Below the pieces are notes generated by a model that was not told where the DNA came from, searched no databases, and saw only the letters and a list, made by a program, of their open reading frames with translations. From Anolis carolinensis (lineage: Eukaryota): DNA of 64,000 nucleotides. Shown piece by piece: positions 10,576 through 61,958 of the stretch (its first letter is position 1; each line of letters begins with the position of its first letter). The stretch lies in NCBI RefSeq assembly GCF_035594765.1, contig NW_026943821.1, positions 26,797,225 through 26,861,224 of the forward strand, read 5' to 3'. The translations under genes and the position numbers were made by a program.

Positions 10576-11337
10576 CTGTATATACTCAAGTATAAGCTTA
10601 GTCTTTCAGCCCTTTTTTTAGAACTAAAAAAGCCCCCCTCGGCTTATACTCGGGTGAGGGTCCTGGCTGGCTTATATTTGGGTCAGCTTATACTCGAGAA
10701 TATAGGGTACATTTATTGTTTTTCTCTATTATTATTGGTATTATTACATTTATTATTTTTCTCTATTATTGTTGCTACTATTACATTTATTTTACTCTAT
10801 TATTAATATTAATACATTTATTATTTCACTCTGATCTTATTATTATTATTACATTTATTATTCTACTCTATTTATTATTACATGTATTATTTTCCTGTAT
10901 TATTTGTTATTATTATTATTATTACATGTATTATTTTACTCTATTATTATTAAAAGGATACATAAGCACATTTACATTGAAGAAGATGAGAATAATGATT
11001 GGATCAGAGTTGGACAGTCTTATCTTAAATTTGAGCATTATGTAAATATTCAAAAACATTTAACCTACTGATGCCTCAATGAATGTATTTTTTTGGGTTG
11101 TTGTATGTTTTCCAGGCTATATGGCCATGTTCCAGAAGTATTCTCTCCTGACGTTTCGCCCACATCTATGACAGGCATCCTCAGAGGTTGTGAGGTATGT
11201 CGTTTTTTGGTATTTATTTTTATTTCTGAAATTTCCCACCCTCGGCTTATACTTGTGTTAATGATTTCCCAGTTTTTAGTGGTAAAATTAGATGCCTTGG
11301 TTTATATTCGGGTCAGCTTATATTCGAGTATATACGG
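10576..11337. mobile_element. Tc1/mariner-type MITE, family B (AT-rich), with a Penelope fragment nested at ~11094-11197
   Basis: TIR C[CT]GTATATACTCGAGTATAAGC with TA ends. Other copies at 44596-44742, 48887-49742, 50751-51405, 52408-53405 and 53888-54822. Confidence 0.8.
11147..11187 (-). ncRNA. Minimal type I hammerhead ribozyme motif in a Penelope pseudo-LTR fragment
   Basis: Minus strand: CCU-CUGAGGA-U-GCCUGU(cauagau)GUGGGC-GAAA-C-GUC-AGG. Catalytic core intact. Confidence 0.65.
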
Positions 11338-12969
11338 TATATATTCTGTGTGTTGCTGTGAGTTTTCCAGGCTGTATGGCCATGCTCCAACAGCATTCTC
11401 TCCTGACATTTCACCCACATCTATGAAGAAAACATACACCATGCCCTCAGCATTTCAACCATTGGGAGCAAAATCCTAGAACTTTGTTTAAGGCAATTAT
11501 TACACCAACAGGATCATGTTTTGATGTGCTGTGTGTACGTTTTAATGGTTTCTGTTGTGTTTTGAGTCTTTAGAAACCAATTTGGAGATCCATTTGCAAT
11601 CTCTCAGACAGACCAATGACATGAACCATGCCTTCATGATATGATGGGGCCCCATATTGTCCATATCAGGCCCTATGTTTTTGCACAGAGCTTTGCAAAA
11701 TTGTCGGGGACTACACCTTGCAGAATTCCACCAGCCAGCACGGTGGCATTAAAAATAGCTTTACCAAACGCAGCAATCGCTCGTGTAACACAAGCAACAA
11801 TGCATCTTCTGTGCGACTGTACCGTGTGGGCCTGGCGAAAAATTTGGAGGCTGGGTTATGAAACGCCCACTCCTGCAATGCCAGGCTTGTGTAGTTCCTG
11901 CCGACCTGTTTCCCATCCTCATTGTTTGCAAAGAAGGATTTGCAAAGAAGGATGAGCCTTAAAAAAAATTGTGGGAGTTGAAGTCCAAAACATCTGGAGA
12001 GAGGGCCCAAGTTTGCCCATGCCTGGACTATACTATATCATAAACTCTGTATTAACTTGATATTATAATTCAAGTACCATTATTAAAAGCAAATAATGTA
12101 ACACTATTTTACTGTATTATACATCTAATTTATTTATAATGTCATTTCTTTGATTGCCAGTTGCTTGAGAATCCTCGGAAGTATTGGGAGCTGACTTTGG
12201 GATGGGGAAAATGCCATGTAGATCTCCAAAAATAAAATCAGCTTGCACAAGAACCTATGAAAAATGGCATTAGATCTGATTTAGGAGCTTGGTGTTGAAC
12301 TGCCAGGTGTGTAGATGTGTACGCATGCTGTTTTGGACTTTTGGTTTCTACTACTCTGTTTTTGCGCTTTTATAATGGACCGATGATCACAGTGGATTTG
12401 ATTGACAGCATGAAATTCTGGTGTATGCAAAGTTGGAGGATGTTTTGGGATAGGAGTCGCTTCTTTCTCAGCATCTAGGGCAAGATGAAAGCAAGGAGAA
12501 CTGACTACGTCAAATGCAGGTGGAAGGGGACTTCCCACATCTCTACAGCGTCTCCAACCAGCAAAGACTACTCTCATCCACACGGCTGTGGGAGTGTGAG
12601 TGGGAGTGTGAGAGGCTCGTCTGAGTCGAAGTAGAACTAAATCCTTAATCCAGCCACAGAGTTAGCCTCGCTGTTAGTTGCCCTTCAGATATCCGCAGGT
12701 AAGGAAACAAAACGAAAAAAGAGCACCATTTCACACCCAAGTTCCACCTTGGCTTTCCCTTAGTTATACCGAGAAGCAGATCCTTTTCTCTTCCAAAAGA
12801 AAAAAGAGGCATGGTCAAGTTCTTTATACTTCCTTCTTTACTTCCACGCTGGGCTTCTTTCTCATTGGTGACGTCTACATCGTTCAGAGTTCTTACTCCC
12901 TTTCTGATGCCAACTCCATCGTCTTACTGAGAGCAGTGATGTTGTTCTTAGTTGCCAGTGTCTGATGCC

Positions 12970-15268
12970 TCACGGCCTTCTGTTTGGCATGTGGATGTCC
13001 ACGGGGACAAATGTCACTGTTGGGTTGCGGCCGGGACTATTGCCACCCGGAGCCAAAGCAGGGAGGATGGTGGCTTTGGTGTTCTTCGGTTCCAGCTCTC
13101 TCTGCGTCCTCATTCGTCTACAAAGAGTGAAGAAAGCACAGCATTAGTCAGGACCTGGCCAGCTTAAGCTCTTTGTCCTGGAATAGTATTACTCCCCTAC
13201 ATGAGTCAGAATCATGCCACCATCCAGATACAGGCAGTGCCCAAGTCACCAACAAGGTATCTTCTGTAGGTTTGTTCATAATAATAATAATAATAGTAAT
13301 TAGTTCCTTGACAAAATTGAAGGAAAAGCTGATAAGGAGAAGACCTGGCTCAGGCTCACGAATGGGACCCTGAAGAAGGAGACAGAAGGCCTGATCCTTG
13401 CCACCCAGGAGCAAGACATCAGGACAAAGGCAATTCAGGCCAAGATCGAAAAATCAGCTGATGACCCAAAATGCAGACTCTGCAAGGACACCGACGAAAC
13501 AATGGATCATATCCTCAGCTGCTGTAAGAAAATTGCGCAGAAAGACTACAAACAGAGGCACAACTATGTGGCCCAAATGATCCATTGGAACTTATGCCTC
13601 AAGTACCACCTCCCAGCAGCAAAGAACTGGTGGGATCACAAACCTGCAAAAATTTTAGAAAATGAGCACGCAAAGATACTGTGGGACTTCCGAATCCAGA
13701 CTGACAAAGTTCTGGAACACAACACACCAGACATCATAGTTGTGGAAAAGAAAAAGGTTTGGATCATTGATGTTGCCATCCCAGGTGACAGTCGCATTGA
13801 CGAAAAACAACAGGAAAAACTCAGCCGCTATCAGGACCTCAAGATTGAACTGCAAAGACTCTGGCAGAAACCAGTGCAGGTGGTCCCGGTGGTGATGGGT
13901 ACACTGGGTGCCGTGCCGAAAGATCTCAGCTGGCATTTAGAAACAATAGACATTGACAAAATTACGATCTGCCAACTGCAAAAGGCCACCCTGCTGGGAT
14001 CTGCACACATCATCCGAAAATACATCACACAGTCCCTGACACTTGGGAAGTGTTCGACTTGTGGTTTTGTGATACGAAATCCAGCATATCTATCTTGTTT
14101 GCTGTGTCATAATAAAATAATAATAATAATAATAACATTTTTATACCCCGCCTGTATCTCCCCAAAGGGGACTCAGGGCGGCTTACATGGGGCCAAGCCC
14201 GAATAAAAACAATAACAATATAAAACACAACAATAGACAAGAGACATGCACAATTATAAAAATGTAAACATTACCCAATAAAAACAAATGACAAGAACTA
14301 ATAAAAACATGGATTAAAACGGAGAGGTTGTAAAAATAGTCTGGGTAAGGTGCAACATATAAATATTGTAAACACTAGGTGACTGATGAAGTGCTGCAAA
14401 TTCTTGGAAGTGCAAATTGGGATGGGAATAAACCCTGTGTCTATATCAAGTTGACAAAGGTAAAAAGTGCAAACCAGTACGAAAATGGTCACAGATACAG
14501 GATTGTTATGGGGATGAGCAATCTTAAATTGGATGTAAGTCAGAACAGGGATATTTTTAAGTGTAATTCAAGATAAATATAGATGCACACAAACACAATG
14601 ATAGATCAGATGATGGGTTTGGTATCAAGTAGCTCCTAACAAGCTCTACCCCATTCCTTACGGGTTTTGATTTGTATGTCTGGTCCCCATAGCTAAGCCA
14701 CATGAGCTGATCGGATCCTGCAAAAGGACATACAAGGAGCAGGGTTCAAAGCGACTCCATGGACGTGAAAACCCAACAGCAGCAGCAGAATGATGCAAAG
14801 AGATCGTGAATCAACACCCACGGAATACGCACGGGATCTTCCGCTTGTGCGCCTGAAGAATTAAAGGAACTTGAGCACGAAGCCAAGTCACTGACTCACC
14901 TATTATACATTTTCAGCAAGAGGAGAACCACCGTGAATATAACAATTACGCCAACCACAATGGCCGCCACAATTGCGCCGGAACCTAATGTGAGGAAGGA
15001 AAGAAAACAAAGCAGCAGCATTAAAGGAACCCAGAACCAAATAGGTTTATTGTGATGTTCCACACCACTTTGTATCCATCATAATTTCGTATTCATAATT
15101 TTCTTTCCAATTTTTGGCTATAGCTAATCTTAAAGCAGCAACAAATCTATTAATTCTTTCTTTTGCCATTACGTTTTTCTTACTCTGATAAAGAACTTGT
15201 TCCTGAGACTTGTTGGTGACATTGGTCAAAGACAGGGAACCTTCAGCAGCCGGTGCCGCCGTCGTCAT
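12970..15268 (-). CDS. NCMAP: Non-compact myelin-associated protein (MP11), 105 aa
   Basis: Exons 15184-15268 (MTTAAPAAEG...VLYQ), 14900-14984 (SSGAIVAAIVVGVIVIFTVVLLLLKMYNR, TM helix) and 12970-13117 (RMRTQRELEPK...VTFVPVDIHMPNRRP*). Sits between SRRM1 and RCAN3 as in mammals. Candidate polyA signal at 12129-12134. Confidence 0.93.
13303..14110 (+). mobile_element. Dong/R4-clade non-LTR retrotransposon, 5'-truncated (CCHC knuckle + restriction-like endonuclease)
   Basis: CRLCKDTDETMDHILSCC zinc knuckle and TPDIIVV...IIDVAIP...KLSRY (PD-D/E endonuclease). Flanked on both sides by (TAA)n. Confidence 0.85.
14111..14450 (-). mobile_element. L2 LINE 3' end
   Basis: GTAAGCCGCCCTGAGTCCCC...GGGGTATAAAA(TTA)n tail on minus, the same tail as the ORF-bearing L2 at 62481-63346. 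Confidence 0.65.
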
Positions 15269-61773: not shown

Positions 61774-61918
61774 GTGAGGTGACTTCAACACTCAGCTTGG
61801 AGTGTATATATACATGTAGCACTAGAATACAAAAATATTCTATGTAAACAGAGAGATGGGGAGGTGGGGGGGGGGGGAGAATGCAGCAGCACCTTTAAGA
61901 CGACTAATTTTTATTTTA

Positions 61919-61958
61919 GCATGAGCTTTAATGGATATAAACCCACTTCTTCAGATGC
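61919..61958 (-). mobile_element. Second Penelope family terminal fragment with a degenerate hammerhead
   Basis: Minus: GCAU-CUGAAGA-A-GUGGG(uuuaua)UCCAU-UAAA-GC-UC-AUGC. GAAA is mutated to UAAA. Confidence 0.5.

Follow-up and report, generated by a model that had tools for sequence, protein, structure and literature searches.

Published minimal type I hammerhead ribozymes combine a CUGANGA core, an extra base that separates position 9 from position 10.1, a G10.1-C11.1 pair and a long stem II with a palindromic 15.2/16.2 pair and no loop 3, and they occur mostly as dispersed single motifs. According to the accessible part of PMC4209133, the monomer is inactive and dimers are weakly active, with stem III needing a partner through the palindrome. 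In PAc (Poseidon from Anolis carolinensis, Frangieh et al. 2024, PMC11167929), the available text reports that the hammerhead cleaves only when the element's protein is present, that RNA-seq read ends are absent at the cut site, that core mutants leave insertion in vitro unaffected and that reverse transcription (RT) begins at two internal sites, which bound the tail of the insertion. Here we analyse 64,000 nt of the A. carolinensis genome (GCF_035594765.1, NW_026943821.1:26,797,225-26,861,224, forward strand; hereafter, the window), whose dispersed motifs are Penelope-borne minimal type I hammerheads and whose repeats are, judged by sequence, 5'-truncated stubs of a Penelope/Poseidon retroelement that carries the hammerhead at the start of its open reading frame (ORF). 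We conclude, with considerable confidence, that such stubs are likely to lie idle in host pre-mRNA and that introns harbour intact copies of either orientation.

The window copies are 85-97% alike to a full-length element elsewhere in the genome (L203) that encodes an 836-aa ORF (L203:1052-3559) with a reverse transcriptase domain (RVT_1, E=1.6e-13). The ATG of this ORF takes in the final base of the CUGANGA core as its first letter, immediately before stem II, the hammerhead cut site falls 26 nt after the start codon and a second hammerhead lies 2,638 bp downstream of the first. The 3' ends of copies fall at two fixed points, about +84 or +115 to +117 from the ATG. The pseudo-long terminal repeats (pLTRs) of the element are arranged in tandem or inverted, and its insertions show 5' truncation, a tail of 30-40 bp and target-site duplications (TSDs) of about 12 bp. 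This anatomy resembles that of PAc, as far as the text of PMC11167929 at hand describes it, in the ORF start at stem II, the position of the cut, the two 3' ends (tail end 115-117 nt into the ORF here and 111-118 there), the tandem pLTR-ORF-pLTR arrangement and the ORF length (836 aa here, residues cited up to 818 there). The species and family names of our element would follow from this anatomical match to PAc (PMC11167929, in the part available) rather than from a letter-by-letter comparison with the Repbase sequence; by the features tested, it works like, and appears to be, an EN+ (that is, endonuclease-bearing) Penelope element whose hammerhead is of the minimal type I. Pfam and PDB searches returned no match for a C-terminal endonuclease, and a GVY..YIG motif accompanied by Cys and His residues was seen by eye in the element translation, which may be the GIY-YIG endonuclease signature. 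At least 12 near-identical copies whose frames stay open for 842-867 aa, frequently arranged as tandems with periods of 2,638 or 2,666 bp, were observed on four contigs (C1, C2, C4 and C5), and the family is therefore young and, on these sequence grounds, probably active. A single exact 41-mer occurs 12,566 times in the 1.85-Gb genome (6,339 and 6,227 by strand). The element and its ribozyme appear to be already known, published and tested in vitro.

The initial annotation of the window had proposed that five intronic copies, all antisense to their hosts, are what remains after sense copies that cut pre-mRNA have been purged, and we therefore counted orientations, stratified by core integrity, in a larger intragenic sample. 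Exon hits of five Pfam families were used to define same-gene spans of known strand, giving 180 stretches from 57 genes plus 13 from three copy-rich genes among them (193 stretches, 1,899,401 bases); one ion-channel span on contig C2 and one stretch flanked by SPEG-like Ig hits, for which it was unclear whether both ends belong to the same gene, were excluded beforehand. T exceeded A on the assigned strand in 48 of the 57 genes. The 118 hits comprise 11 sense and 14 antisense copies that are fully intact, 10 and 15 with an intact core and altered stems or palindrome, 17 and 23 with a broken core, and fragments in a ratio of 16:12. As opposite-strand pairs necessarily contribute one copy per orientation, the 36 head-to-head pairs were counted apart from the 46 solo copies. 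The solos divide 18 sense to 28 antisense (p=0.18; 39% sense, 95% confidence interval 25-55%), at 6:12 for intact and 12:16 for broken cores (Fisher p=0.55); within the age-matched pairs, the sole intact arm is antisense in 8 and sense in 6. Perfect 41-mers are found 6 times sense and 4 times antisense, where the genome count predicts 6.4 on each strand (a genome-average density that itself includes introns). The fully intact sense copies are spread over seven genes, with three between exons of one spectrin gene. A strong ribozyme-driven purge of sense copies is thus not supported and is excluded for the 57 genes sampled, and the antisense lean does not follow core integrity. Titles and abstract openings in the open-licence literature yielded nothing on an intron strand bias of Penelope-like element (PLE) hammerheads, and the text of PMC11167929 that we could access gives no intron orientation counts.

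Within the window, core-intact motifs lie, as the initial annotation had stated, at 11147-11187 (-), 55434-55474 (+) and 59316-59356 (-); all three are fully intact, stems I and II being in register with the minimal type I core (C3-A9, G12-A14, A15.1-U16.1 and H17). A fourth copy, at 57441 (+), had been called near-intact, which applies to its catalytic core; its stem-III palindrome is altered and stem I retains two of three pairs. The core pattern matches four times, with 1.01 expected by chance and at least four matches in 0 of 100 shuffles, and the stem descriptor finds 35 hits in the intragenic sample compared with 0.7 in shuffles. The Rfam scan of the window gave no hammerhead family at E<=5, the minimal form going unmatched, and returned only sub-threshold microRNA-type hairpin matches over inverted repeats. 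A CUGAUGA..GAAA match at 13458 was rejected because it lies inside an RTE-like long interspersed nuclear element (LINE) ORF and fails the stem descriptor, and four further regular-expression matches to the core were also rejected. The motifs share with published minimal hammerheads all of the features listed at the outset and differ in the length of stem I, which is 3 bp here and 4-5 bp in Schistosoma; the accessible text on those hammerheads does not mention anoles. The palindromic 15.2/16.2 pair is present (ACGU self-duplex, -3.1 kcal/mol) and has been lost in the copies at 57441 and 30030. Stem II had been described as varying while keeping its pairing: it is indeed paired in 93% of cells across 49 copies, but nearly all changes are one-sided and only one is two-sided. 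No compensatory signal emerged, stem covariation in the 49 copies being equalled or exceeded in 497 of 500 shuffles, in a test of low power (that is, one young family, post-insertion decay and stems that also encode the protein N terminus).

The predicted folds suggest why such motifs may be harmless. In the minimum-free-energy fold of the monomer, the CUGA core pairs with a UCAG past the cut site (-13.7 kcal/mol, compared with -7.5 kcal/mol for the hammerhead stems) and stem I has a probability of at most 0.08 in four window copies; in a natural 173-nt tandem, the free fold reaches -51.2 kcal/mol and the fold constrained to the dimer -30.2 kcal/mol, all of these energies leaving out tertiary contacts. 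RT likely starts only 50-80 nt downstream of the hammerhead, and because of this the motif would be copied into almost every stub. A lone copy is predicted to fold into an inactive hairpin and to have no stem-III partner, and would therefore be near-neutral and decaying, often at CpG sites; cleavage, to go by the literature, would in addition need the element's protein. This account is built on counts and computed folds, and cleavage behaviour at these loci is a prediction. Genome counts of two CpG variants (4,874 for G12A and 9,789 for C11.1U) show no excess of dead cores; we dropped this comparison as support, given that G12A is non-synonymous and C11.1U synonymous in the ORF, so that selection on the ribozyme is not isolated.

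Several points weigh against reading the stubs as idle. The solos do lean antisense, including those with intact cores, and the sample size leaves room for a bias of 60:40 or even 70:30. The sampled hosts are kinase, Ig, ion-channel, myosin and spectrin genes, which are large and often tissue-restricted and are represented without first introns; their spans come from Pfam exon hits rather than annotation, and 13 stretches were added from three copy-rich genes. Core-intact neighbours on the same strand within one stretch are antisense at all three loci at which they occur, and none is sense (L076, L035 and window 55424/57432). The introns within the genome-average density and the tertiary contacts outside the fold energies, both mentioned above, belong to the same side of the balance.

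How, then, might the antisense lean have arisen? That sense copies cut host pre-mRNA and are purged, leaving intact intronic copies antisense, seems to us very improbable. The window's five of five (two-sided p=0.0625) and the 6:12 split of intact solos point in this direction, and Xenopus retrozymes are depleted from introns (10.64898/2026.07.22.740005, the accessible text of which gives no strand analysis), but sense copies make up 11 of the 25 that are fully intact, the density of perfect sense copies is as expected, and the sense fraction is unrelated to core integrity, intact and broken solos being alike (at small n). Moreover, two of the five window copies are core-dead (those at 30030 and 61919, which therefore cannot now be cut) and only two of the five are fully intact, cleavage depends on the element's protein in the part of PMC11167929 at hand, and splicing was reported to remain largely intact after an intronic hammerhead cut, a result relayed second-hand in PMC2995048, where a faster ribozyme did prevent splicing. 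The five antisense copies of the window are likely to be a small-sample coincidence.

A mild antisense bias of about 60:40 that is independent of the ribozyme, and caused by promoter, splice or poly(A) signals of the pLTR or by insertion preference as in many retroelements, is possible, if still doubtful. It would account for the 18:28 ratio of solos, for intact and broken copies leaning the same way and for the 3 sense and 10 antisense among tailed solos in the first sample (that is, the first 180 stretches), and an antisense bias of intronic transposable elements is described for mammals in the portions of PMC3517506 and PMC3088655 seen. The lean itself, however, has p=0.18, and the solos do not differ from LINE controls in that sample (RTE-like 22:26 and L2-like 18:16; Fisher p=0.34-0.53). 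Such a bias is compatible with idle stubs rather than exclusive of them. Selection might instead remove only those sense copies that are able to dimerize in cis (that is, tandem arrays and close same-strand neighbours) while tolerating single ones, which we consider unlikely. The three antisense loci of core-intact neighbours, the existence of tandem arrays with 173- and 220-nt periods in the genome and the partial activity of dimers (PMC4209133, in part) would fit, but n is 3, one partner at each of these loci has an altered stem-III palindrome, the dimer fold of the natural tandem lies 21 kcal/mol above the free fold and the two arrays fetched have no placement relative to genes. Idle stubs that are tolerated in either orientation therefore remain our preferred reading.

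A separate question is how the head-to-head insertions form. Head-to-head arms with inverted pLTRs, a 30-40 bp tail at one end and a short TSD are described for EN+ Penelope elements in the available text of PMC3846280 and PMC8557442, the former proposing self-priming as the cause of the inverted pLTR, so that the one-tailed pattern is already known in outline; relative to those portions, new here are the counting of the pattern and the placement of both outer ends at the two RT start sites, and the accessible text of PMC11167929 does not link its two start sites to head-to-head arms. We examined 38 pairs (36 from the sample and 2 from the window, within a 1,500-bp limit), in 36 of which both ends could be scored: 31 of these have one tailed and one tailless arm, whereas the solos comprise 14 tailed, 25 tailless and 6 unscored copies. 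The outer flanks share at least 9 bases, as expected of a TSD, in 24 of the 38 pairs compared with 2 of 1,406 mismatched controls. None of the three composite insertions departs from the one-tail rule; in one of them (L206), the lone arm has one mismatch to the outermost tandem unit and five to seven to the inner units (the one clear case), whereas in L204 the values are 0 and 1, and L205 is uninformative.

These patterns could reflect priming from both DNA ends on the same RNA segment, a scheme that we advance tentatively, as somewhat short of an even prospect. The element protein (a predicted dimer) would cut with a stagger of about 12 nt, after which each DNA end would prime RT at a site of its own, one at +117 (tailed) and the other at +84 (tailless). 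Two-ended priming would thereby explain the single tail in 31 of 36 pairs, the rule in 3 of 3 composites and the match of the L206 arm to the outermost unit, the last of which is not predicted by fold-back self-priming and hence favours two-ended priming. Among the loci viewed, L205:1184-1928 and L206:1514-2132 are four-unit tandem arrays with periods of 220 and 173 nt, respectively, in which every unit stops at the RT start site of tailless arms. Both resemble the non-LTR retrozymes (10.64898/2026.07.22.740005, available in part), whose hammerhead-bearing units are likewise related to pLTRs, but read as single PLE insertions, as they end at an RT start site and possess both a TSD and a tailed arm in inverted orientation; the window copies, for their part, are monomers. 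At L187:6157-6858, both arms are tailed and inverted duplicated flanks replace the direct TSD, which looks like a secondary inverted duplication.

The host genes of the window were placed by Pfam matches and translations. The minus strand has PWI, Calcipressin and NIPA exons and the plus strand RTE1-like ones, which we take to be those of SRRM1, RCAN3, NIPAL3 and TMEM222, respectively. The initial assignments to RCAN3, NIPAL3 and TMEM222 hold, and the five intronic copies in these genes (one, two and two) are all antisense. The longest stub (59263..59624 (-), TMEM222 intron 1) contains the ORF end, a whole pLTR, the intact hammerhead at 59316-59356 and a tailless 3' end; its match to the 3' end of L203 is 86% across 373 nt, and on the upstream side the copy continues for 268 nt, reaching the final codons of the element ORF. 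The stub at 55424..55559 (+), with the intact hammerhead at 55434-55474 and a 33-nt tail, lies in the NIPAL3 intron that separates the ATG exon (about 56615-56523) from an exon whose start is near 53639. An older stub at 57403..57533 (+), which contains the core-intact copy at 57441, lies in a predicted 5' untranslated region (UTR) intron of NIPAL3 and counts as intronic only if this gene has a non-coding first exon at a CpG island, as a donor-like site near 58213 would suggest. A CpG island at 57950-58660 appears to serve NIPAL3 and TMEM222 as a common bidirectional promoter. A solo stub at 30018..30121 (+), with a broken core (30018-30119) and a 13-bp TSD, occupies the last RCAN3 intron (30206-29380). 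The TMEM222 intron after the exon at about 61677-61773 holds a copy of a second, older hammerhead repeat family (61890..61975 (-), with the broken core at 61919-61958), an assignment made initially and borne out by other copies that are 83-92% alike. This family has a 4-bp stem I and a palindromic stem III, and GAAA is kept in most of the 11 other copies viewed, the G (G12) being lost in the window copy; its two hits in the intragenic sample are both antisense, too few to judge. It is also present as inverted pairs (C5 and C2 loci, among L192-L202), which suggests another PLE.

Four copies had initially been listed as mutated, and the broken cores of all four stand, but those at 26415-26503 (-) and 26541-26629 (+) are the arms of one head-to-head insertion (26383..26629) with a 12-bp TSD, a tailed arm at 26383-26503 (-) and a tailless arm at 26541-26629 (+), and G12 changed to A in both. 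This insertion is probably inside the RCAN3 3' UTR, with one arm in each direction; RNA-like runs cover 26700-28400 in the 3' region of the gene, and no minus-strand poly(A) hexamer occurs between 28806 and 26227. When transcribed, the two arms would pair into a hairpin of about 90 bp, which might serve as a substrate for editing or nuclear retention. A shorter head-to-head pair of the same element, without a hammerhead, lies in SRRM1 intron 1 (7805..7904); it was found by BLAST, as was a fragment at 11352-11425, and both had been missed before.

Also missed was a fifth host gene on the minus strand, with coding exons at about 15268-15182, 14984-14899 and 13116 onward (12960..15270), which have no Pfam match and which, from sequence and gene order, are presumably those of NCMAP. 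RNA-like contigs cover unique sequence of this region down to 11455, and the intact copy at 11147-11187 is therefore sense to a transcription unit; from its position, this copy is probably sense to NCMAP and at or just past its 3' end. Its stub (11095..11199 (-), tailless) lies about 1.8 kb past the stop codon, and the fragment at 11352..11425 (-), also sense to NCMAP, lacks the 5' half of the hammerhead. Within 11147-11224, the intact sense hammerhead sits about 30 nt downstream of two AATAAA hexamers (11224 and 11218), which directly precede the stub and appear to derive from another repeat. If this hammerhead cut, it would act at the termination zone of NCMAP.

In summary, the useful outcome of this analysis is a negative one, and the window copies as found have otherwise little significance. 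Two-ended priming, if true, would provide a testable step in Penelope transposition, bearing on how inverted pLTRs and the one-sided tail arise, for which an existing in vitro system could be used. Lizard introns appear to tolerate intact minimal hammerheads in sense orientation by the tens of thousands, in keeping with the idea that these motifs need the element's protein in order to cut.

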